Positions 1,664 to 63,522 of a stretch of DNA of 64,000 nt are shown here, piece after piece. The stretch comes from Patescibacteria group bacterium UBA926. Its GTDB lineage: Bacteria > Patescibacteriota > Doudnabacteria > UBA920. The notes under the pieces were generated by a model. The model saw only the letters and a list, made by a program, of their open reading frames with translations. It had not been told where the DNA came from and ran no database searches. The first letter of the stretch is position 1. Each line of letters starts with the position of its first letter. The stretch covers positions 40,140-104,139 of the forward strand of contig DBDS01000007.1 in the NCBI GenBank assembly GCA_002293685.1. Reading direction: 5' to 3'. A program made the translations under genes and the position numbers.

Positions 1664-1706
1664 AATCCCCGGAAGCCTGAAAGGCTATCCGGGGTCTTTT
1701 TATTTT
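1664..1706. terminator. Bidirectional rho-independent terminator between the convergent 127-aa gene and valS.
   Basis: Hairpin CCCCGGAAGCCTGAAAGGCTATCCGGGG followed by TCTTTTTATTTT on the + strand. On the - strand the same hairpin is followed by TTCTTTTTT. Confidence 0.55.
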
Positions 1707-4003
1707 GGCCAGTTGGCGATAATGAGTGTTTTATCTTCCACGAGCTTACCTTCGCGTAACTTCTGCCATAGTACTTCTGTTACGAATGGCATGAACGGAT
1801 GGAGAAGTTTTAAAATGTGTAAGAGAATGTGAAGCAGTATTGCTTGAGTATTAGCTTTTTGATTTTCGTTCTGAATTTGTTCTTTTGTTGCTTCGATATA
1901 GACGTCTGCAAATTCTTTCCATACGAATTCATAAAGTGTTTGCGCCGCGTCATGAATGCGGAAAACATTCAAGCTCTTGGAAACAGATTCAATTGTTTCT
2001 GAAAGCTGGTTTAAGATGAGTTGATCGGCTTTGGTGAGCTTGTCATTCTGAGGCGAAGCCGAAGAATCTAGATCCTTCGCTACACTCAGGATGACAGCCA
2101 CTTCATCTGCAGAGATATTGGTTAGGATATATCTTGTGATATTCCAAAGCTTGTTCCCAAAGTGCTTCATACCTTTGATTTTATCCTCTGCTAAAGCGGT
2201 ATCTGTTCCAGGGGCTGTATTGAATACCAAGGCAAAACGCAATGCGTCGGTGCCGTATTTTTCAATCATGTCGAGCGGGTCGATAATATTGCCAAGGCTT
2301 TTACTCATTTTTTGGTTTTTGGAATCTCGGATTAAGCCGTGCAAATAAACATGTTCGAACGGAATTTGCCCTAAGTGATAACCGCTCATCAATACCATAC
2401 GAGCAACCCAGAAGAATAAGATATCGTATCCAGTTTCCATTACAGTTGTTGGATGGAAGGTTTTTAAATCCGGGGTTTCGTTTGGCCAACCTAAAGTAGA
2501 GAAAGTCCACAGTCCAGAAGAGAACCAAGTGTCCAAAGTGTCTTCGTCCTGAGTCCAGCCTTCGCCTTCAGGCGCTTCAATTCCTACATACATGTTACTG
2601 TCATCCTGAGCATCACTGTCATCCTGAGCGTTAGCGAAGGATCCATTATCAGATTCTTCATTCCGCTTCGCTCCACTCAGAATGACAGGGGTAGTTTTGT
2701 ACCAAACAGGAATACGATGCCCGAACCAAATCTGACGAGAAATACACCAATCGCGCAAGTTATCTATCCAGTGGAAGTAGGTTTTGTTAAAGTGATCTGG
2801 AAAAATTTTTATTTGCCCGCTTGTTACCACTTGCCGCATTAACTCTTTTAACGTGGTTTCTGTGCCTGAATCAATTCCTTCAATTTGAGACTTCTTTAAA
2901 GTAAAAGGTTTATTTACATCTAAGAACCACTGCAGTTTCGGTAATGGCTCGATAATGCCACCGCTTCTTTCGGCTGTGGCAACATTTTGTTTGACCGATT
3001 CTTCGCGCTCCAATAGATTCTCGCTTCGCAACCATTCGACAATGGCTTCACGCGCCACTGTTGTTTTTTGATCAATCACACCTTCTTGCCCAGCGGTCAT
3101 TTTTGCAAACTCGTTAATGACTTGCTTGAAAGGAAGCTTGTGTCGTTCGCCGATTTCAGCATCAACTTGGCTATGAGCTGGAGTGACGCCCAAAGCACCA
3201 GTTCCAAATTCTGGGTCAACGCTTTCTTCACCAATAATTTTGATGTGAAGTTGTTCACCTGCAAAAGTAACATCAAATTCTTGACCGATAAATTGTTTGT
3301 AGCGAGCATCTTCAGGATGAACTGCAACTGCGGTGTCACCAATTTTGGTTTCCGGGCGTGTGGTAGAAATTGAGATAGGGAAGTCGGCGCTATATTTGAA
3401 AGTATAAAGAGTCGCTTCACGCTCTTCGTGAACAATTTCGTCATCAGAGATAACAGTTTGGCCTTTCGGATCCCAGTTGATTACTTTGTGCGCACGGTAA
3501 ATTAAACCGTCGTCGTACATATTCTTAAAAGCTGTGCGAACAGCTAGACTGCGAGGTTCGTCTAAGGTGTATGCTTCGCGGCTCCAATCAACGGAAGCAC
3601 CAAGCGCTTTGATTTGACCAACGATTGTGTCGCGACTTTCTGCTGCAAATGTTTCCACGCGCTTTACGAATTCTTCACGACCTAAATCGGTTTTGCGAAC
3701 ACCTTCTTTGGTTAAGATTTTTTCTACTTTGGATTGGGTCGCGATTGCAGCGTGGTCTGTTCCTGGTAACCATAAAGTCTTGCGTCCTTGCATGCGACGG
3801 AAGCGAGTGAGTATATCTTGAATTGTCACGAACAGCGCGTGGCCAACATGAAGCGTTCCAGTCACGTTTGGGGGCGGCATGATAATAGAGAACGGTTCGC
3901 CGTCACCTAAATTATCTGGGTTAAAATACCCAGAATCTAGCCAGTTTTGGTAAATATCCGCTTCGTATTTTGAGGCTTCATAGGCCTTATCTAGTTCAAT
4001 CAT
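1700..4003 (-). CDS. valS: Valyl-tRNA synthetase (class I aminoacyl-tRNA synthetase). It carries two in-frame family-A repeat insertions.
   Basis: HIGH motif (PNVTGTLHVGHAL) and KMSKS motif are present. CP1 editing-domain region and anticodon-binding region are present. 767 aa. Inserted peptides AVILSVAKDLDSSASPQNDK and NEESDNGSFANAQDDSDAQDDS are encoded by repeat DNA. Confidence 0.93.
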   Translation of the reverse strand: MIELDKAYEASKYEADIYQNWLDSGYFNPDNLGDGEPFSIIMPPPNVTGTLHVGHALFVTIQDILTRFRRMQGRKTLWLPGTDHAAIATQSKVEKILTKEGVRKTDLGREEFVKRVETFAAESRDTIVGQIKALGASVDWSREAYTLDEPRSLAVRTAFKNMYDDGLIYRAHKVINWDPKGQTVISDDEIVHEEREATLYTFKYSADFPISISTTRPETKIGDTAVAVHPEDARYKQFIGQEFDVTFAGEQLHIKIIGEESVDPEFGTGALGVTPAHSQVDAEIGERHKLPFKQVINEFAKMTAGQEGVIDQKTTVAREAIVEWLRSENLLEREESVKQNVATAERSGGIIEPLPKLQWFLDVNKPFTLKKSQIEGIDSGTETTLKELMRQVVTSGQIKIFPDHFNKTYFHWIDNLRDWCISRQIWFGHRIPVWYKTTPVILSGAKRNEESDNGSFANAQDDSDAQDDSNMYVGIEAPEGEGWTQDEDTLDTWFSSGLWTFSTLGWPNETPDLKTFHPTTVMETGYDILFFWVARMVLMSGYHLGQIPFEHVYLHGLIRDSKNQKMSKSLGNIIDPLDMIEKYGTDALRFALVFNTAPGTDTALAEDKIKGMKHFGNKLWNITRYILTNISADEVAVILSVAKDLDSSASPQNDKLTKADQLILNQLSETIESVSKSLNVFRIHDAAQTLYEFVWKEFADVYIEATKEQIQNENQKANTQAILLHILLHILKLLHPFMPFVTEVLWQKLREGKLVEDKTLIIANWPK
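2041..2096. repeat. Family-A repeat, short copy, inserted in-frame inside valS.
   Basis: TGTCATTCTGAGGCGAAGCCGAAGAATCTAGATCCTTCGCTACACTCAGGATGACA. Translated on the minus strand it gives AVILSVAKDLDSSASPQNDK within ValRS. Confidence 0.7.
2598..2689. repeat. Family-A repeat with a duplicated left terminus, inserted in-frame inside valS.
   Basis: CTGTCATCCTGAGCATCACTGTCATCCTGAGCG...CTCAGAATGACAG. It encodes the acidic, low-complexity ValRS segment NEESDNGSFANAQDDSDAQDDSNMY. Confidence 0.7.
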
Positions 4004-6368: not shown

Positions 6369-7781
6369 TTAAGCATGTGCAGGTTCTGACTCGGCTTGCT
6401 TTTTAAGCAAGTAAGAAAGAATTGGTGGTGTAAAGAGGGTAGTTAAGATTACCATGATGATGATAATCGAAAACACTTCATCATTTACAACACCGAGAGA
6501 TTTACCGATAGTGGCAAAAATCAATCCAACTTCTCCACGAGGAACCATCCCGAACCCGACCAAGTTCTTGTTGACACTGCCAGCAGCTAATCCGGAAAGC
6601 CATTTACCGATGAATGCTACTGCAGTAATTGCTAGTCCGACAAGAAGGATTTTTGGTTCGAATAAGGTAGCTAAATCAACGTTCATACCGGTGTATACGA
6701 AGAATAGCGGAACCAAGAACAGAGCGATTGGCTCGATTAGTTCTTCAACGTGCTTGTCGGAGTGGTGGGTAACAAGCTTCATAATCTTTTCTTTTCCAGC
6801 TTCATCAACGTGTTCCAAATGTTCTTCGATATCACGCGCCACTTTTGGTCTACGGAAGTACTTAAAGTGAACAGGGTCGAGCACAAGTCCGGCCGCGAAC
6901 GCGCCTACGATTGGAGCCAAGCCAATAAATCCAGCTACGGCCGCAAAGATTAACGCGAAGCTGATGGCGAGAGTGAACTTCATTCCAACGCCTGTGTGAA
7001 CTTTGGATAAGAAACGCCCGAAGTAAGGCGCAGTAAGCTGTCCAAGAACAATCGCACCAATTAAGAACGCAAGAGCTTTAACGATAATCAATCCTACTGT
7101 GCCCACACCAACTGTTCCAAGAGTTACAAGTGCAGAAACTACAGCCAAAATGATTAAACCAATTACGTCATCAATAACAGCCGCGCCAAGAACAATTTTT
7201 GCTTCAGGCAAACTGAGCTTGCCCAAATCTTTGAACACGCGAGCGGTAATACCTACTGATGTCGCGGTTAGAGCTGCACCGAGGAATAGGTAAGTGTTGA
7301 GTTCAAGACCTGGCATTAACAAAGGTCCAACCACCCAAGTTCCAAGGACAAACGGTGCTACAACACCAATGATTGCAACCATAAACGCACGCAAACCGAC
7401 TTTCTTCATCTCAACGATATTTGATTCCAAACCAACTTGGAATAACAAAATGATCACACCAAGTTCCGCAAGGAATGGAATGAATAAATCGCTTTTGATT
7501 GGCTCGAAAAAATTCAAACCGATTAAAGCTAGGTTACCAAGAACGATACCAATCACAAGCTCACCGAGTACTGCGGATTGTCCGAAGCGTTCAATTAAAC
7601 TTGCAAGCTTGGCAGCGACTAAGATTACCGCTAACCAAAGGATGCTCATTAGGAATCCATCACCACCTGCACCACCTGCTGCATGAACAACTGGAGCAAA
7701 AGTTAGGGTGATTAAACCCATGTAGATAAAAGTCTTCGCGCGCATTCGCGCTGGCCAGAAGCGGCCGAGTAGGGATTGCAT
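6369..7781 (-). CDS. Cation:proton antiporter (CPA family Na+/H+ or K+/H+ exchanger) with a C-terminal cytoplasmic extension.
   Basis: About 11 transmembrane helices with glycine-rich segments, then a charged soluble segment (DIEEHLEHVDEAGKEK). Confidence 0.6.
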   Translation of the reverse strand: MQSLLGRFWPARMRAKTFIYMGLITLTFAPVVHAAGGAGGDGFLMSILWLAVILVAAKLASLIERFGQSAVLGELVIGIVLGNLALIGLNFFEPIKSDLFIPFLAELGVIILLFQVGLESNIVEMKKVGLRAFMVAIIGVVAPFVLGTWVVGPLLMPGLELNTYLFLGAALTATSVGITARVFKDLGKLSLPEAKIVLGAAVIDDVIGLIILAVVSALVTLGTVGVGTVGLIIVKALAFLIGAIVLGQLTAPYFGRFLSKVHTGVGMKFTLAISFALIFAAVAGFIGLAPIVGAFAAGLVLDPVHFKYFRRPKVARDIEEHLEHVDEAGKEKIMKLVTHHSDKHVEELIEPIALFLVPLFFVYTGMNVDLATLFEPKILLVGLAITAVAFIGKWLSGLAAGSVNKNLVGFGMVPRGEVGLIFATIGKSLGVVNDEVFSIIIIMVILTTLFTPPILSYLLKKQAESEPAHA

Positions 7782-34390: not shown

Positions 34391-34492
34391 CTGTCATTCT
34401 GAGCGAAGTCCGCCTAAATCTCGCAGAGATTTTGTGCGGACGAAGCAAAGAATCCCATAAGATCCTTCGTCGCTTCGCTCCTCAGGATGACG
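34391..34492. repeat. Family-A palindromic repeat, intergenic.
   Basis: CTGTCATTCTGAGCGAAGTCCGCCTAAATCTC...GACGAAGCAAAGAATCCCATAAGATCCTTCGTCGCTTCGCTCCTCAGGATGACG. Confidence 0.7.
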
Positions 34493-34683: not shown

Positions 34684-35934
34684 ATGAACAATCCATTTGA
34701 ATCTGCGAAAAAACAATTGCAAATAGCAGCCGATACCGCGCAGCTAAATCTAAATCAGGTTGAAAGATTGATGCATCCAGATAGATACATCGAGGTTTCT
34801 ATCCCGGTAGAAATGGATGACGGTTCGCAAAGAATCTTTGAAGGCTTTAGAAGCCAACACAACAATACCATGGGGCCATACAAAGGTGGTATTCGTTATC
34901 ACCAAGACGTTAATCTTGATGAAGTAAGGGCTTTAAGCTTTTGGATGTCTTTTAAAAATGCCGTTATTAATGTTCCTTTTGGTGGTGGTAAAGGTGGAAT
35001 TATTGTAAACCCAAAAGAGTTATCCGAAACCGAATTAGAAAAACTTTCTCGTGGTTACATGCGTCAAATGTGGCGAAATTTCGGTCCGGAAATTGATGTT
35101 CCTGCACCGGATGTAAATACCAACGGTACAATTATGGGCTGGATGCGCGATGAGTTTGAAAAGCTTAGCGGTACAATCGCGCCGGGAGTAATCACAGGTA
35201 AAGCAATTGAAGATGGTGGTAGTGAAGGTCGAACAGAAGCAACTGGTTTTGGCGGCGGTTATATACTTAGAGAAGCCTTGGAAGCAGGTTTGATTTCCCC
35301 TCCTTCTCAAGGAGGGGTGGCCGAAGGCCGGGGTGGTCTAACCATTGCAATCCAAGGGTTTGGTAACGTAGCTACTTATTTGTCTGAATATGTTGCCCAG
35401 CATGGTTTCAAAATAGTTGCGTTGTCTGATAGCAAAGGTGGTGTTTATAGTTCAGATGGTATAGATGTCAGTTTGGCAGAACAGCATAAGAAAATTTCAG
35501 GCTCACTCAAGGATTTAGAAGGAACTTCAGAAATTACTAACGAGCAATTATTAGAACTTGATGTTGATGTATTAGTTCCAGCCGCTTTGGAAAATGTATT
35601 TACAGCAGAAAACGCTGAAAAGATTAAAGCGAAATTTATTCTGGAAATGGCGAACGGTCCAACTACTCCAGAAGCCGACGAAATTTTTGCTAAGAATGGC
35701 GTTACTGTTGTGCCTGATATTTTAGCTAACAGTGGAGGGGTATGTGTTAGTTATTTTGAGTGGTATCAAAATATGCACAATGAGAAGTGGTCAAAAGAAG
35801 ATGCTCTAAAGAAATTAGATGAACACATGGTTGCTGCTTTCAAAGAAGTACGCGATGCTCAAGTAAAATATAATTGTACTCTGCGAACCGCAGCCTATAT
35901 CGTGGCAGCAAACCGAATTCTTTCAAAAATGTAA
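34684..35934 (+). CDS. gdhA: Glutamate dehydrogenase (Glu/Leu/Phe/Val dehydrogenase family). It carries an in-frame family-B repeat insertion.
   Basis: Catalytic Lys box GPYKGGIRYH. NAD(P) site GFGNVA. The inserted peptide ISPPSQGGVAEGRGGL is encoded by repeat B. Confidence 0.85.
   Translation: MNNPFESAKKQLQIAADTAQLNLNQVERLMHPDRYIEVSIPVEMDDGSQRIFEGFRSQHNNTMGPYKGGIRYHQDVNLDEVRALSFWMSFKNAVINVPFGGGKGGIIVNPKELSETELEKLSRGYMRQMWRNFGPEIDVPAPDVNTNGTIMGWMRDEFEKLSGTIAPGVITGKAIEDGGSEGRTEATGFGGGYILREALEAGLISPPSQGGVAEGRGGLTIAIQGFGNVATYLSEYVAQHGFKIVALSDSKGGVYSSDGIDVSLAEQHKKISGSLKDLEGTSEITNEQLLELDVDVLVPAALENVFTAENAEKIKAKFILEMANGPTTPEADEIFAKNGVTVVPDILANSGGVCVSYFEWYQNMHNEKWSKEDALKKLDEHMVAAFKEVRDAQVKYNCTLRTAAYIVAANRILSKM
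35297..35338. repeat. Family-B GC-rich double-hairpin repeat, inserted in-frame in gdhA.
   Basis: CCCCTCCTTCTCAAGGAGGGGTGGCCGAAGGCCGGGGTGGTC. Confidence 0.7.
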
Positions 35935-45091: not shown

Positions 45092-45553
45092 ATGAATAGT
45101 ATTGACAGTATTTTGAATATGATTCGGACTGAAGCGGGGGAAAGAACTGCAAGTGCACGCACTGATCGATTGAGCGTTTCTGAGCTCGAACTGTATCAGC
45201 AGGTACAGTCAGAAGATGTGAACGAAGTTAGGATTTCAATTACGAATGAGCAGATCGAAGAAATCATGCATGCGGGTGCGTCTAACCCGAGCTATCATTC
45301 AAGCATCGATTGGGTTATAGAAACAACTCCTGAGTATGCTTTTATCGACAGTTTGGGTGTAACGGCATTGCCTGTACTTCGAAAGCTTTTGGCTGAAGAC
45401 TTCCATGATCAGTTAGTAGTAATTCACTTGCTGGGGAAACATGAACCTTTCTGTCCTGAAATTCCAGAGGAGGCACTAAGCCGTGTTCAGGAACTTAGGC
45501 GGATCTGGTTGGAATTTATTGAGTCCCACTCGCTTCTGACGGAAGATGGTTAA
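45092..45553 (+). CDS. Hypothetical protein.
   Basis: 153 aa. SD GGAGGG. Followed by the first copy of the duplicated terminator. Confidence 0.45.
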   Translation: MNSIDSILNMIRTEAGERTASARTDRLSVSELELYQQVQSEDVNEVRISITNEQIEEIMHAGASNPSYHSSIDWVIETTPEYAFIDSLGVTALPVLRKLLAEDFHDQLVVIHLLGKHEPFCPEIPEEALSRVQELRRIWLEFIESHSLLTEDG

Positions 45554-45590
45554 AACAAAATCGGCCTTGCTTACAGCAGGCTGATTTTTA
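45552..45590. repeat. Direct repeat, copy 1: a terminator-like hairpin nearly identical to the trpS terminator at 46184-46222.
   Basis: AAAACAAAATCGGCCTTGCTTACAGCAGGCTGATTTTT versus AAAACAAAACCGGCTTGCTTACAGCAGGCCGATTTTTT. Confidence 0.7.
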
Positions 45591-45644
45591 TTTTGAGAAT
45601 ATATTGAATAGGACTTTAGAGGTGGTGTGTTATCATCATTACTT

Positions 45645-45690
45645 CCCCTCCTTATTTATGAGGAGGGGTGCCCGTAGGGCGGGGTGGTGG
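45645..45690. repeat. Family-B double-hairpin repeat, forward orientation, at the 5' edge of the DUF559 gene.
   Basis: TCCCCTCCTTATTTATGAGGAGGGGTGCCCGTAGGGCGGGGTGGTGG. Confidence 0.7.
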
Positions 45691-46108
45691 TATGAGATTA
45701 CATAATATTAAAAAATTATATAAACATCGAAAAAAATTACGAAACCAATCAACCTTAGCAGAAATAAGATTGTGGTATTATCTGAAAAAATCAAAATTGG
45801 GCGTAAAGTTTAGAAGGCAGCACAGTGTCGGACCATATATTTTGGATTTTTACTGTAGTAAGTATAAATTAGCAGTTGAGTTGGATGGTTCATCTCATGA
45901 TTTTGAACAAGCTTATTCACGAGATACTGCTCGCACAAAATATCTTGAAGACCAAGGGCTAATTGTTTTGAGATTTGAGAATAGGTTGGTCTTTGAAAAT
46001 ATTCAAGGGGTGGTTGATATGATTAGTTTACATTGTAACCACCCCGGCCTTTCAGGCCACCCCTCCTATCCGCCTTTGGCGGCAGGAGGGGAGGGAAAAC
46101 TTCAGTAA
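45668..46108 (+). CDS. DUF559 / Vsr-like (restriction-endonuclease-fold) endonuclease domain protein. Both ends of the ORF extend into family-B repeats.
   Basis: LAEIRLWYYLKK...FRRQHSVGPYILDFYC...AVELDGSSHD...LIVLRFEN matches DUF559. The likely true start is the internal Met (MRLHNIKK). Confidence 0.65.
   Translation: MPVGRGGGMRLHNIKKLYKHRKKLRNQSTLAEIRLWYYLKKSKLGVKFRRQHSVGPYILDFYCSKYKLAVELDGSSHDFEQAYSRDTARTKYLEDQGLIVLRFENRLVFENIQGVVDMISLHCNHPGLSGHPSYPPLAAGGEGKLQ
46039..46095. repeat. Family-B double-hairpin repeat, inverted orientation, at the 3' edge of the DUF559 gene.
   Basis: CCACCCCGGCCTTTCAGGCCACCCCTCCTATCCGCCTTTGGCGGCAGGAGGGGAGGG. Its reverse complement matches family-B architecture. 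Confidence 0.7.
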
Positions 46109-46183
46109 ACCTCAGGATGCACCACATACCGGAACAGACGGGGTAGTGAAGTCTTTAAGTTCATCATTAAATCAAGTTAACTT

Positions 46184-46222
46184 AAAACAAAACCGGCTTG
46201 CTTACAGCAGGCCGATTTTTTG
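46184..46222. repeat. Direct repeat, copy 2: the trpS terminator hairpin, overlapping the trpS stop codon.
   Basis: See copy 1. About 36 of 38 nt identical. Confidence 0.7.
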
Positions 46223-47161
46223 TTTGACTTCAGTTATAGTTGGAACGGCGATTTCTCTTGCTCGGGCAGCTCCATCATTGAGAATTTTGGAAAGCTCAGA
46301 TTTATCGTTGAGTAATTCCTTTTTACGCTTTCGGAAATCTGCAAAATGATCGCTGATTGTTGTAGCTAGTACAGACTTCAATTCACTGTATCGAATTTCA
46401 CCCGATTTCTGTTCAGCAGTAAATTTATCGACGACGCTTTTATCAGCAAAATAGCTTAGAGTTTCGATTAAGTTTTTAGCGCCTGTTTCAGTCGTGACCG
46501 CCTTTTTTAACTTTGCTTCGATAATTTCTGGAGTGTCGTCCAGATAGAGAGGGTCATCGCCAGTTTTGCTCATCTTCTTGTCCGGATTTTTTAAACTCAT
46601 TATTCGAAGAGGCTTGCGTTCGTACGGTTTTGGCTCTGGAAAAGTTTCGCCAAATTGTCTGTTGAATTTTCGTGCAATTATTCGAGCGAGTTCTAAGTGC
46701 TGAACCTGATCTTCACCAACAGGAACAAAATTTGGTTTGTATAATAGAATGTCTGCGGCCATTAAGGTAGGGTAGGTAAGCAGACCAGCGTTTACGGAAT
46801 CTTTCTGGGATCGCCCCTTATCTTTATATTGAGTCATTTTCTCGAGTTCGCCAACTGGAGTTATACAATTAAATATCCAAGCCAGCTCGGCATGTTCTAA
46901 AACATGGTTTTGGATAAAGATAACCGATTTCTTTGGGTCGAGTCCGGCAGCAATGTATTCAGCCACAACTTCCAGAGTATCTTGGCGTAATTTTTCTGGA
47001 TCACGAGGAACTGTTAAAGCATGTAAATCCGCCACAAAGAAATAGCACTCAAGTTTCCCTTCATTTTGAATATCTACGAATTGCTTCAAGGCCCCGAGAT
47101 AATTGCCGATGTGCATTCGGCCAGTTGCCTGAACTCCTGATAAAATAGTCTCTTTTTTCAT
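46202..47161 (-). CDS. trpS: Tryptophanyl-tRNA synthetase.
   Basis: HIGH motif (TGRMHIGNYLG). KMSKS (KKMSKT). 319 aa. Confidence 0.9.
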   Translation of the reverse strand: MKKETILSGVQATGRMHIGNYLGALKQFVDIQNEGKLECYFFVADLHALTVPRDPEKLRQDTLEVVAEYIAAGLDPKKSVIFIQNHVLEHAELAWIFNCITPVGELEKMTQYKDKGRSQKDSVNAGLLTYPTLMAADILLYKPNFVPVGEDQVQHLELARIIARKFNRQFGETFPEPKPYERKPLRIMSLKNPDKKMSKTGDDPLYLDDTPEIIEAKLKKAVTTETGAKNLIETLSYFADKSVVDKFTAEQKSGEIRYSELKSVLATTISDHFADFRKRKKELLNDKSELSKILNDGAARAREIAVPTITEVKQKIGLL

Positions 47162-48071: not shown

Positions 48072-48150
48072 GTGTCATTCTGAATCCGCCAAAGGCGGAC
48101 GAAGAATATCATGGAGATCCTTCGGTCGCTTTGCTCCCTCAGGATGACAT
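48072..48150. repeat. Family-A palindromic repeat, intergenic.
   Basis: GTGTCATTCTGAATCCGCCAAAGGCGGACGAAGAATATCATGGAGATCCTTCGGTCGCTTTGCTCCCTCAGGATGACAT. Confidence 0.7.
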
Positions 48151-50079: not shown

Positions 50080-50587
50080 AGTTTATAAATGTACGTTTTC
50101 CGTACTTTGATTATAGAAAAAGTTTTTGCATTTCTGTGAGAACTTTCAATTTCTGTGCACGGAACGCCTAAAAAATTGTTCGCGTCGTGCGGGTGAACTT
50201 GTTGAAAATTCTGTAACATCCGGAATTGCATCGAAAAACTTAGATGCTAATAGCAAAAACTTTTTCATTAATAATTTTTGTGTTGATAGAATTCGAGAAA
50301 TTTTGGTCTGTATAATTTTGTCTCCAAAATAAATCTAAGATTCTAGGAATCAGGGAAGTGGCTTCCGGGGCCGCCTTCGCATGACTTTTACAAACATCTT
50401 GTTTGCAATTAACACATGAATGCTTACTTGATCTGTCATCCCAAGTCCGCTAAAGACGGATTAAGGATCTCAAATAAAAACTCATCTATTAATTGAGTAA
50501 GTTTAGTATACCAGTCATTGGCTTTTTTGTCAACCAACTTTTACCAGAAAACCCTTAAATAAAGGGTATTTTGACCAGTGTTGTATT

Positions 50588-53024: not shown

Positions 53025-54891
53025 TGGCCTCAGCTTTTGCTTCACCAACGAGCTTGGTGAGTTCTTCTATCGGTGCGTGTTTGATTTGATCAACCGTACC
53101 GATTTTTTGTTTCAGTAATTTTTTAGTTTTTGGTCCGATTCCTGGAATCGAGTCGAGTGCAGATTTTGTAGCCTGTTTGCTTCGCAAAGATTTATGGAAT
53201 GTGATGCCAAATCTATGGGCTTCGTCGCGAAGTCTTTGTAATAGTTGAAGAACTGGATTGTCGTGGGACAATACTATCGGATCTTTTTGGTTGGGTAAAA
53301 AGATTTCTTCGATTCGCTTGGCAAGTCCAATCACAGGGATTTTGAGTTTAGCTTCTTTTAATGCTTCTACAGCCATTTTGAGCTGACCTTTACCACCGTC
53401 TATAACTAGCAAGTCTGGAATAGGCCACGCGTCTTTGGGGTCGGTAGGATTTACGCGAGTAAGTCGTCGCCCCAGCATCTGTTTCATCATGGCGAAATCG
53501 TCTGGAGTTTGTTTACCTGTGATTTTAAATTTGCGATACTCAGATTTTGCAGCAACACCATCTTTGGCGACGACCATACTTCCAACCGGATTGGTTCCTT
53601 GCGTGTTGCTTATGTCGTAGCCTTCAATCCGTCTTGGGGTAGTTGGCAATTTGAGTAATTTTTTTAACTCAGCCAAAGTTTCTTGAATCAAATCTGAATT
53701 ACTAGCTTGACTGCGTTGCCATTTCATCAGATGTTCCTTTGCATTTGTTTCACCCATGGCAATGAGTTTTAGTTTTTGACCACGAGTAGGGGAGCTAATC
53801 GCGATTTTAGTTTTGGTACGTGTTGCTAGAAGTGTAGTGAGTAATGGTTTGTTTGGTAGTTCGATTTGGGTGAAAATTTCCTTTGGTAAATCGGTCGCTT
53901 CGGCGTAATACATCTCTGAAAAAGCTTGAAGCACAGTTGCTCCGCGTTCTTCTTCTGGAATCGCCAACAAATTTTGATACAAGAAATTCTCTTTGTCCAT
54001 TAATTTGCCTTCGCGGACCTTGAAAAGGTTTACTCCAGCTGTGAGGCTGTCGCAGTAAATTGAAATAAAGTCCCATGACACTTTTTTGGTTAGAACCGTG
54101 AGTTGCTTTTCTTGCAGAACGGCAATGGCTTTGAATTCATCTCTAAGACGCGCCGCTTTCTCGAACTGTTTTCGTCTCGCCGCGACTTTCATCTCGGCTT
54201 GAATTTGTTTAACTATTGGTGCGGTTTGGCCAGAAAGGAACAAAGAAATTTTTTGAATGTGCAAATCATATTCTTCAGGAGACATTAAGCCGATGCAAAC
54301 TCCTGGACAACGATGGAGGAAATAATAGAAGCACGGGCGCTTGCCGACTTCTTTGTTGGCGCAAAAATGAAAGACGCGCCTAACTAAGTCTAAAGTTTGC
54401 CCAATTTTTTTGGTTGATGAGTACGGTCCGAAGAATTTATCCCGGGTTTTTTCCTCCCTTCGGGATGAAGTCAAGGAATCTAAGTTTTCCCCTCCTCGCT
54501 TGCGAGGAGGGGTGGCCCGTAGGGCCGGGGTGGTGTCTTCAACTTTACGAACATAAGTAATTTGCGGAATCTCAGTAGAATAATCGATTTTAATAAACGC
54601 GTAATTTTTATCATCACGCAACATGATGTTGTACGGAGGGAGATGCTCTTTAATCAGAGTATTTTCTAAGAATAAACTTTCGAGTTCGGAGTTCACTACT
54701 ATATAATCGAAATCGGTTGCTTCAGCCATAAGGAAGGGGAGTTGAGCACGGGTGTCTGTGCCAGAAAAATATTGTGCCAATCGACTACGCAAAACTTTTG
54801 CTTTTCCCACATACAAAACAGTTCCAGTTTTATCTAGGAACTTGTAAACGCCCGGCTTGCGGGGAACGTCCTTGACTTTGTTTTTCAGCAT
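53005..54891 (-). CDS. uvrC: Excinuclease ABC subunit C. It carries an in-frame family-B repeat insertion.
   Basis: GIY-YIG (GVYKFLDKTGTVLYVGKAKVLRSRL). UvrBC domain. RNaseH-like and HhH C-terminus. The inserted peptide TTPALRATPPRKRGGENL is encoded by repeat B. Confidence 0.9.
   Translation of the reverse strand: MLKNKVKDVPRKPGVYKFLDKTGTVLYVGKAKVLRSRLAQYFSGTDTRAQLPFLMAEATDFDYIVVNSELESLFLENTLIKEHLPPYNIMLRDDKNYAFIKIDYSTEIPQITYVRKVEDTTPALRATPPRKRGGENLDSLTSSRREEKTRDKFFGPYSSTKKIGQTLDLVRRVFHFCANKEVGKRPCFYYFLHRCPGVCIGLMSPEEYDLHIQKISLFLSGQTAPIVKQIQAEMKVAARRKQFEKAARLRDEFKAIAVLQEKQLTVLTKKVSWDFISIYCDSLTAGVNLFKVREGKLMDKENFLYQNLLAIPEEERGATVLQAFSEMYYAEATDLPKEIFTQIELPNKPLLTTLLATRTKTKIAISSPTRGQKLKLIAMGETNAKEHLMKWQRSQASNSDLIQETLAELKKLLKLPTTPRRIEGYDISNTQGTNPVGSMVVAKDGVAAKSEYRKFKITGKQTPDDFAMMKQMLGRRLTRVNPTDPKDAWPIPDLLVIDGGKGQLKMAVEALKEAKLKIPVIGLAKRIEEIFLPNQKDPIVLSHDNPVLQLLQRLRDEAHRFGITFHKSLRSKQATKSALDSIPGIGPKTKKLLKQKIGTVDQIKHAPIEELTKLVGEAKAEAIIKYLK
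54490..54536. repeat. Family-B double-hairpin repeat, inserted in-frame in uvrC.
   Basis: CCCCTCCTCGCTTGCGAGGAGGGGTGGCCCGTAGGGCCGGGGTGGTG. Confidence 0.7.
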
Positions 54892-59247: not shown

Positions 59248-59457
59248 TTACTGACGTTTAAAAATATGCTCAATCGGTTTTCCAAAATGTTCCGCAATTT
59301 GCATTGCTAATAGAAGTGAAGGGGCATAGTTGCCTTTTTCAATTGCAATTACTGTTTGTCTGGATACGCCTAACTCAGACGCCAAGTCTTCCTGAGTTTG
59401 ATTACGTTCCTGTCTTAATTTTTTTATGTTGTTTTGTAGCATAAATTTCATTGTCAT
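59248..59457 (-). CDS. XRE-family helix-turn-helix transcriptional regulator.
   Basis: LRQERNQTQEDLASELGVSRQTVIAIEKG HTH_3 signature. 69 aa. Confidence 0.8.
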   Translation of the reverse strand: MTMKFMLQNNIKKLRQERNQTQEDLASELGVSRQTVIAIEKGNYAPSLLLAMQIAEHFGKPIEHIFKRQ

Positions 59458-59534
59458 CCTGAATCATTTTTGTCATCCTGAGCGAAGCGAAGGATCTCAT
59501 AAGGATTCTTCGTCCCGCCGTGGGCGGAACTCAG
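59452..59534. repeat. Family-A palindromic repeat with a duplicated left terminus.
   Basis: TTGTCATCCTGAATCATTTTTGTCATCCTGAGCGAAGCGAAGGATCTCATAAGGATTCTTCGTCCCGCC...CTCAGAATGACACC. Confidence 0.7.
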
Positions 59535-59554
59535 AATGACACCAGTTTGATAAA

Positions 59555-63442: not shown

Positions 63443-63454
63443 CATGCCTAGCAT

Positions 63455-63522
63455 GTCATCCTGAAGGAGCGAAGTGACTGAAGGATCTCAACGAAAGATT
63501 CTTCGCTACGCTCAGAATGACA
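63455..63522. repeat. Family-A palindromic repeat between hrcA and grpE.
   Basis: ATGTCATCCTGAAGGAGCGAAGTGACTGAAGGATCTCAACGAAAGATTCTTCGCTACGCTCAGAATGACAAAG. Confidence 0.7.

Follow-up and report, generated by a model that had tools for sequence, protein, structure and literature searches.

The BoxC, PIT or TM repeats of bacteria (Bachellier et al.; Hoyne & Maher 2000; Holder et al. 2015, PMC4666352) are GC-rich, multi-copy sequences that are dispersed through the genome and often form inverted pairs at loci prone to rearrangement. They have been in the Escherichia coli literature since the 1990s and occur in hundreds of genomes. A survey in 2015 recorded these triplex motifs (TMs) in more than 260 genomes, reported that TM loci are hypervariable among E. 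coli strains and found no transposase, integrase or other mobility function near them; it arrived at no function for the repeats, only at a link to local instability (Holder et al., PMC4666352). Here, we describe a locus at which a repeat of this kind is paired with the gene for a predicted nuclease of the DUF559 family. It lies in a window of 64,000 nucleotides from the Patescibacteria group bacterium UBA926 (assembly GCA_002293685.1, contig DBDS01000007.1, positions 40,140 to 104,139), where the DUF559 gene is bracketed by two inverted copies of a structured repeat, termed the B repeat, and the resulting cassette is inserted next to trpS. The same pairing recurs across bacterial phyla, with gene and repeat varying together.

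A parallel for such a pairing is offered by the REP/REPIN-RAYT system (Nunvar 2010; Bertels & Rainey 2011, PMC3116915), in which the gene for a REP-associated tyrosine transposase (RAYT) is single-copy, persists vertically and lies between inverted structured repeats. These repeats are dispersed through the genome and their type is matched to the clade of the gene; both properties are found here. RAYT, however, is an HUH (IS200/IS605-type) tyrosine transposase which cuts and rejoins single strands, whereas the DUF559 protein has the fold of the PD-(D/E)XK nucleases and is not an HUH Y1 transposase, and the B repeat is a triplex-type motif rather than a simple palindrome. A second parallel is insertion with long target duplication (Nobusato 2000; Furuta 2010, PMC2853133), known from restriction-modification and other nuclease genes, where the repeats measure about 46 bp. 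Here too, a nuclease unit without a transposase or integrase is found between direct duplications of more than 30 bp, and the repeat is single in the empty genome. It spans the stop codon of the neighbouring gene, which thereby survives (PMC2853133). Third, the Vsr-like (EDxHD) homing endonucleases (I-Bth0305I, PMC3239194; the free-standing enzymes of ‘fractured genes’, PMC2677866) have a homologous catalytic domain, and they too are selfish or accessory genes that occupy fixed sites in some genomes and not in others. Each component of the cassette is known, namely the DUF559 nuclease, the BoxC/TM repeat and insertion with long target duplication. An earlier reading of the window, made from its sequence only, had called the element undescribed; this does not hold for the repeat, which belongs to a described class, but as far as the searchable literature shows, where no report of a DUF559-repeat pairing was found, the combination is new.

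The DUF559 gene occupies 45692..46108 on the plus strand and encodes 138 amino acids from an ATG at 45692. The open reading frame (ORF) as listed runs from a GTG at 45668 to 46108 and has 146 codons; the true start is likely to be the ATG, which directly follows the upstream repeat. That repeat (45643..45691, forward, plus strand) folds into two hairpins (fold z=-3.4) and consists, in order, of a C arm CCCCTCCT, a G arm AGGAGGGG, a small GC hairpin and a mirror block GGGGTGG ending 5 nt ahead of the ATG. The downstream repeat (46038..46097, reverse, minus strand; fold z=-4.4) has a nested CCGCCAAAGGCGG hairpin in its first loop and supplies the last 23 codons of the ORF. The sequence-only reading was therefore right to place the gene between inverted B repeats. 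In the outer flank of the upstream arm (45597..45642, plus strand), an extended -10-like TGtTATCAT at 45628-45636 may act as a promoter. A TGnTATCAT is likewise present upstream of the ORF in a related cassette from a Candidatus Doudnabacteria metagenome-assembled genome, L001 (related and homologous loci gathered for comparison are numbered in this way); the alignment of the window with L001 begins at 45624. Beyond the downstream arm, an 86-nt spacer (46098..46183, unstranded) is collinear with another related locus, L164, and no recognised feature was found in it.

The cassette is flanked by two copies of a terminator. The right, proximal copy (46184..46227, minus strand; fold z=-4.7) is the working terminator of trpS (46202..47161, minus strand), the gene for tryptophan-tRNA ligase (Pfam tRNA-synt_1b, 6.7e-69). 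As had been claimed for it, this copy overlaps the end of the gene: the stop codon TAA (46202-46204) sits in the loop of the hairpin, its 5' arm codes on the minus strand for ...KQKIGLL*, and the 3' end of trpS makes up half of the duplicated sequence. The left, distal copy (45550..45596, plus strand; fold z=-4.4) stands in direct repeat with 46184-46227, has a terminator-like score and carries in its 3' arm GCAAGGCCGATTTT, the sequence of the single terminator found at empty sites. Both copies fold as A-tract, hairpin and T-tract. The left one begins at the stop codon of the convergent neighbour of trpS, a hypothetical ORF of 153 amino acids (45092..45553, plus strand) which lies outside the cassette and gave no match in Pfam or NCBIfam searches, and it now appears to be a terminator-like hairpin serving this ORF. 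As it also holds a decayed pseudo-copy of the trpS coding end and stop codon, it is a true duplication and not an independent terminator; two independent convergent terminators are ruled out by this relic and by the single hairpin at empty sites. The inserted unit measures 631 bp and the direct repeat 40-45 nt, with 82% identity ungapped (45553-45596 against 46184-46227) or 92.5% over 40 nt with one gap. The flanking direct repeats of the earlier description are thus a real duplication (45550-45596 and 46184-46227); they do not abut the inverted repeats, from which 46 nt separate the left copy and 86 nt the right.

Occupancy of the site was compared in twelve lineages whose TrpS is 72-100% identical to that of the window. 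In nine of these (TrpS 72-88%), the site is empty, trpS being followed by one terminator and the next gene, with no cassette: L165/166 (88%), L167/168 (87%), L169/170, L171, L173/174, L175, L176, L002 and L003. At empty sites the usual terminator sequence is AAAAAATCGGCCTGCTGTAAGCAAGGCCGaTTTT, whose loop holds the stop codon, and homologues of the 153-aa ORF adjoin trpS in the cassette-free L002, L169 and L173. The site is filled in the window species, which includes a strain with 99% TrpS identity on an 851-kb contig, in L001 (86%) and in L164 (82%), each of which has a duplicated trpS 3' end. The length of the duplication varies between genomes from 34 to 45 nt, and the flank duplications of L001 measure 74 nt and 34 nt. 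The cassette is therefore an insertion, as first proposed, into the terminator common to trpS and its convergent neighbour, with a target duplication of 40-45 nt, and the duplication left each of the two genes with a terminator. The comparison with empty sites that the sequence-only reading had asked for thus bears out insertion. Between the window and L001, the cassette is 66.5% identical in nucleotide sequence, within the 62-78% range of the flanking genes; this divergence neither supports nor excludes separate acquisition.

The gene next to trpS is itself variable. The window has the 153-aa ORF whole, L002 has it split or duplicated (6988-7756), and L169 (3472-3780) and L173 (3472-3768) have a version of about 100 aa. 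It is absent where a HAD/PMM-like hydrolase gene abuts trpS (L001, L003, L165, L167, L171 and L176) or where a PGM gene does so (L175). With such variable neighbours, the 3' flank of trpS appears to be a general hotspot of gene turnover.

The insertion footprint matches that of insertion with long target duplication, and not that of a classical transposon. The insert is shorter than 20 kb, carries a nuclease gene and no mobility gene, and lies between repeats longer than 30 bp which span the stop codon of the neighbour and are single in L165, L169, L002 and other empty genomes. It differs from the described cases in having no methyltransferase partner and in its conserved inverted repeats, which recur elsewhere in the genome. 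The sequence-only reading had instead favoured a small mobile element with terminal inverted repeats (TIRs) and a duplicated target, mobilised by the DUF559 enzyme and with the solitary B repeats as non-autonomous derivatives. In classical terms this would be a TIR transposon with a target-site duplication, in which DUF559 would act as the transposase and the solitary B repeats of the window would be miniature inverted-repeat transposable elements. In its favour, the locus does have inverted terminal repeats, direct repeats that flank it and relatives with an empty site, and the repeats are dispersed. However, a classical element of this type is expected to have a short, fixed duplication abutting its ends, a transposase and several full-length copies, and the cassette has none of these. 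The direct repeats are 34-45 nt long, variable in length and 46 and 86 nt from the arms. The cassette protein has only a 115-aa PD-(D/E)XK domain, and no DDE, HUH or recombinase module was found in it with Pfam or NCBIfam. There is one copy per genome sampled (one in the 64-kb window, one in the 11-kb L001 locus and one per E. coli genome), and within lineages it occupies the same syntenic site. The solitary B copies are single units and not TIR pairs, and so do not look like the deletion products that had been envisaged as non-autonomous derivatives. A TIR transposon is on these grounds quite improbable.

The protein matches Pfam DUF559 (PF04480) with E=2.6e-31 and 108.2 bits against a cut-off of 20.6, over residues 17-123 and profile positions 3-108 of 109. 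It also matches NCBIfam PRK09767 (3e-24); the NCBIfam name is only ‘DUF559 domain-containing protein’. The nearest structure is that of an uncharacterised Neisseria protein, 3HRL (4e-16 with the single sequence, 2e-29 with a family profile). The family profile further matches the catalytic domain of I-Bth0305I (3R3P, E=4e-4, profile positions 50-122), which a single-sequence search with the window protein does not reach; this agrees with a published grouping that unites Vsr, DUF559 and I-Bth0305I (PMC3424549). Residues D52, E63, D65 and H69 are invariant in 24 homologues, giving the catalytic core D...E-x-D...H. The protein is hence a predicted nuclease of the Vsr/EDxHD-like PD-(D/E)XK type. 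As for other kinds of identity, a defence system was rejected, since PADLOC returned only a marginal match to DpdF (E=0.005), and a search of Rfam for known RNA families gave nothing meaningful.

Kinship with I-Bth0305I (3R3P, 4e-4; PMC3239194) raises the question of whether the gene could be a free-standing homing endonuclease, targeting the empty trpS-terminator allele here and other conserved sites elsewhere, with the B repeats as incidental or regulatory passengers. Presence or absence at one fixed site, both among the relatives of the window and in E. coli, would be in keeping with this. The gene is free-standing, no intron or intein context having been seen, it encodes no extra DNA-binding domain, and it comes with repeats and a target duplication, which homing does not leave. 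Moreover, the partner conserved across phyla is the repeat, whose arms co-vary with the enzyme, whereas the sites differ (trpS, ruvB-flippase, rdgB and fabI-sapF). We therefore give homing little credence.

The link between DUF559 and the B repeat extends well beyond the window. A scan of metagenomes with the DUF559 core gave 80 loci at 45-60% amino acid identity, from soil, gut and rumen and from hosts of 0.33-0.69 GC. When the best inverted repeat between 200-nt flanks was sought at a threshold of at least 22 bits, flanking inverted repeats were found at 52 of 62 DUF559 loci (84%) compared with 3 of 192 control ORFs (1.6%) from the same loci. The controls include spurious reading frames, and the 84% applies to this DUF559 subfamily (at least 45% identity to the window protein) and not to all DUF559 proteins. 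The geometry does not vary: one unit lies upstream of the gene and its reverse complement just downstream, such that the mirror blocks face the ORF on both sides. Additional copies in tandem or direct orientation are frequent, and further copies lie kilobases away; dispersed copies at other DUF559-bearing loci number 30 in 142 kb. The sequences of the repeats fall into types I-V, which map onto the clades of the DUF559 tree, both arms changing together. Among the unit sequences are CCCCTCCT/AGGAGGGG/GGGGTGG, CTCCTCCT/AGGAGGAG/GGAGGTGG, CCCCTCCC/GGGAGGGG/GGGGTGGGG and CCTCTCCC/GGGAGAGG/GGGTGAGGG. Gene and repeat are thus paired across phyla and co-vary. Duplications beside the cassette recur in unrelated lineages as well. 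In L088, a repeat and the 5' end of rdgB have been copied, over 103 nt, to the opposite side of the cassette, a copy that is missing from the closely related L086; L129 has direct repeats of 138 nt.

It could be argued that there is no functional link at all, and that triplex repeats simply pile up in hypervariable, horizontally acquired intergenic DNA, where DUF559 is one accessory gene among others. TM loci in E. coli are hypervariable generally and adjoin genes of all classes, and only one of the 18 TM sites of strain K-12 is at ycjD, the DUF559 gene of that species. The frequency of bracketing (84% as against 1.6% of control ORFs), the constant geometry with mirror blocks facing the ORF on both sides, the clade-specific repeat types and the span of the pattern from hosts of 33% GC to hosts of 69% GC all speak against such an accident, which seems highly doubtful. 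Carriage of the gene by plasmids or phages was also considered and rejected, as it is rare in both: the gene is in 34 of 72,556 plasmid records, and several of these 34 are chromids or chromosomes under a wrong label; among phages there are 2 records.

By its architecture, the B repeat belongs to the BoxC/PIT/TM class of intrastrand triplex motifs. Each unit combines a C-rich arm with a G-rich arm complementary to it and with a G/T block in mirror symmetry to the G arm; this is the pyrimidine arm, purine arm and mirror block design of that class. All four copies in the window read CCCCTCC / GGAGGGG / GGGGTGG. Of 111 distinct flanking units, 59% have a perfect 7-nt mirror block 3' of the G arm, as against 2% on the 5' side and 5% in shuffled controls. 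The consensus of the E. coli TM is CCCTCNCCC-N3-6-GGGNGAGGG-N3-GGGNGAGGG (PMC4666352), and units flanking DUF559 genes share the architecture CCCTCNCCC-N-GGGNGAGGG-N-GGGNGAGGG (PMC4666352). Type IV units (CCCTCTCCC...GGGAGAGGG...GGGTGAGGG), which flank some DUF559 genes, are essentially the consensus of TMECO, the E. coli TM. Folding was computed as hairpins only, and the triplex assignment refers to the three-block sequence architecture. There are differences from the class as described. Its loops are short (1-6 nt, ITxF), whereas the first loop can be long in the window (5-16 nt) and the second loop of type I units holds an extra GC hairpin of 11-15 nt; types III and IV elsewhere are short-looped. 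TMECO is reported to be always intergenic, whereas the solitary repeats of the window and of L001 lie in frame inside coding genes. Finally, no enzyme has been associated with TMs, whereas a nuclease gene is here bracketed by such repeats.

Some further resemblances of the unit may be recorded. There is a likeness to a Shine-Dalgarno sequence in the G arm, AGGAGGGG (in the Bacteroidota type, AGGAGGAG), and to the anti-Shine-Dalgarno of 16S rRNA in the C arm; the positions concerned in the window are 45661-45668 and 45680-45691, and equivalent arms exist elsewhere. In the three cassettes from the candidate phyla radiation, the distance from the mirror block to the ATG is 5 nt (window), 5 nt (L164) and 8 nt (L001), and the block reads GGTGGTGG, like proteobacterial Chi sequences.

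The core motif of the repeat, GGAGGGGTGNCC, occurs four times in the window against an expectation of 0.23, and none of 100 shuffles reached four. Besides the two arms of the cassette there are two solitary copies. That in gdhA (35295..35340, plus strand) is in frame, is read as the peptide ISPPSQGGVAEGRGG and aligns to a gap in solved glutamate dehydrogenases, just ahead of the GxGxxG loop. The other lies in uvrC (54487..54534, plus strand), where it is read antisense as TTPALRATPPRKRGGE. A third solitary B-type repeat, in ychF of L001 (10052-10095), is in frame with the peptide PLPLSGGGVAEGRGGG and is absent from ychF of both the window and L165; solitary B repeats are therefore insertion-polymorphic. 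Such in-frame inserts, in gdhA, uvrC and ychF, recall the Rickettsia palindromic elements, reported by Ogata et al. in 2000, which are of another sequence family and host. These are short structured repeats that reportedly lie in frame in conserved protein genes without destroying them, and to our knowledge no enzyme is associated with them. In uvrC, a second small hairpin-forming insert, cccgggttttttcctcccttcgggatgaag, adjoins the solitary B repeat at 54440-54486, and the two jointly add about 35 residues to UvrC.

In E. coli, the DUF559 gene ycjD lies at NC_000913.3 1351039-1351828 (L179 1540-2330; the O157:H7 locus is L180). In the supplementary table of the 2015 survey, TMECO no. 9 is listed between fabI and ycjD, 167 nt from the latter (PMC4666352), an adjacency that passed unremarked by its authors. 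Of the 18 K-12 TM sites, one adjoins ycjD, for which chance would, on a rough estimate, account with a probability of less than 1%. Beyond the ycjD stop codon come, in this order, a degenerate TM, 42 nt that duplicate the 3' end of the gene, and an intact TMECO of type A. The gene is accessory and single-copy, being present in 3378 of 5426 complete E. coli genomes and absent from about 38%. In genomes without it, homology to K-12 ends some 38 nt short of the TM, and a TetR/RND efflux segment lies beyond the break in the O157:H7 strain that was inspected.

Orientation of the gene is not fixed. With the loci aligned in trpS orientation, the DUF559 ORF of L001 points the opposite way to that of the window. 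The window and L164 are collinear, and L164 and L001 are collinear at both ends, namely over the trpS end, repeat, spacer and nested-loop arm on the trpS side and over the distal arm and terminator copy on the other, with only the ORF flipped between the arms. L001 thus differs in orientation through an inversion between the inverted arms and not through a second insertion. Two independent insertions in opposite directions were rejected on account of the collinear ends and of the arm with the nested loop and the shared second hairpin, which is trpS-proximal in both L164 and L001; the nested-loop arm is so placed in all three filled genomes. Campbell-type circular integration via a B repeat was also considered for L001, L164 and L129, and would fit the direct B repeats, but is not needed once inversion is accepted. 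The inversion in L001 agrees with the report that ‘DUF559 domain-containing protein’ is 14-fold enriched among predicted targets of programmed inversion (PMC9881135).

Taken together, these data suggest that the cassette is an accessory, single-copy module made up of a nuclease gene and its cognate inverted repeats, an analogue of RAYT and REP in which the nuclease would act on the repeat. We assign this reading a probability of roughly 0.5. The nuclease would recognise its repeat and nick or cut it. Repair of the break from other copies of the repeat would spread solitary repeats, sometimes in frame into genes, while repair that copied adjacent host DNA would produce long flanking duplications and repeat arrays. 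Repair could also flip the ORF between its inverted arms. The gene would persist between its own sites, as RAYT does between REP sequences. We infer the action of the protein on the repeat, and all the steps that follow from it, from the pattern described above.

Several points weigh against this reading. Physical linkage alone would suffice to match repeat types to gene clades. A PD-(D/E)XK nuclease is unable to join strands itself, so that any spread must use host repair. No near-identical cassettes in different contexts were found in the metagenome scan, and with no cassette seen at two sites nothing points to a recent move of the unit as a whole. Recent transposition had been considered and was rejected, as there was no relative above 60% identity in that scan and all 16 contigs with an identical protein were in one context. 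Two diverged groups of gut Bacteroidota both keep the cassette at one syntenic site, with ruvB on one side and a flippase-like gene on the other. In the tree of TrpS, the two closest empty lineages fall inside the filled group, and with support values of 35-65 the tree is too weak to separate one gain and precise losses from several gains. B repeats number zero in 59 kb of empty relatives as against three solitary copies in 80 kb of filled genomes (P ~0.18); this correlation between solitary repeats and cassette is not significant, and empty relatives may carry the gene elsewhere. Lastly, a stable triplex went undetected in vivo (Holder et al., PMC4666352).

Alternatively, the enzyme could be a guardian of the genome: a structure- or sequence-specific nuclease beneficial to the host, such as a Vsr-type mismatch nickase or a processor of hairpins or triplexes, that mends or resolves trouble arising from the repeats and for this reason co-evolves with them without spreading them. 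The fold is Vsr-like, and in Caulobacter the DUF559 protein VsrA behaves as a nuclease linked to DNA damage and tied to cytosine methylation (PMC12907096). The gene is also single-copy and often syntenic, and its co-variation with repeat type fits recognition without implying mobilisation. Such a role would, however, leave unexplained the fixed bracketing by inverted repeats at 84% of loci and the existence of an accessory unit that is indel-polymorphic and lies between target duplications. In the gene tables of the Patescibacteria loci no methyltransferase was noticed next to the gene, although no systematic scan of neighbours was made. We regard a guardian role as unlikely.

If the module reading is extended to E. 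coli, DUF559 nucleases, YcjD included, may be the missing cognate enzymes of the BoxC/PIT/TM repeats in a RAYT/REP-like system, in which the folded repeat is cut and host repair spreads the repeats. This broader proposal is a tentative one, which we hold to be possible rather than probable. Were it true, the same nuclease activity would cause the genome instability reported around TM motifs, and the repeats would sometimes spread in frame into genes, as with the Rickettsia palindromic elements. In any case, the pairing of gene and repeat provides a concrete candidate enzyme for a repeat class that has had none, and may explain why DUF559 genes are found among predicted invertible loci. E. coli K-12 is a tractable host in this respect, with ycjD, 23 TMECO copies and natural ycjD-plus and ycjD-minus strains. 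The trpS cassette also adds a new case, from the streamlined genomes of Patescibacteria, to the little-understood route of gene gain by long target duplication.

The window contains a second repeat family, with half-sites TGTCATYCTRAG ... GAAGAATC and an inverted partner. Its half-sites number 18 against 1.1 expected. Most are arranged as inverted doublets, with a spacing of about 45-90 nt and without a gene between them, at 1135-1254, 2041-2096, 2599-2687, 34392-34492, 48073-48149, 50434-50486, 59452-59541 and 63454-63522. The mini-hairpin CCGCCAAAGGCGG, which each of the three filled genomes has within the first loop of one B arm (window 46067-46082; L001 7123-7139), also forms the centre of some family A units (GTCCGCCAAAGGCGGAC), for example at 1192-1208 of the window. 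This shared hairpin suggests nesting, or a sharing of modules, between repeat families. Two doublets of the second family lie in frame inside valS (1700-4003, minus strand), where they are read as peptides such as VAVILSVAKDL and TPVILSGAKRNEE.

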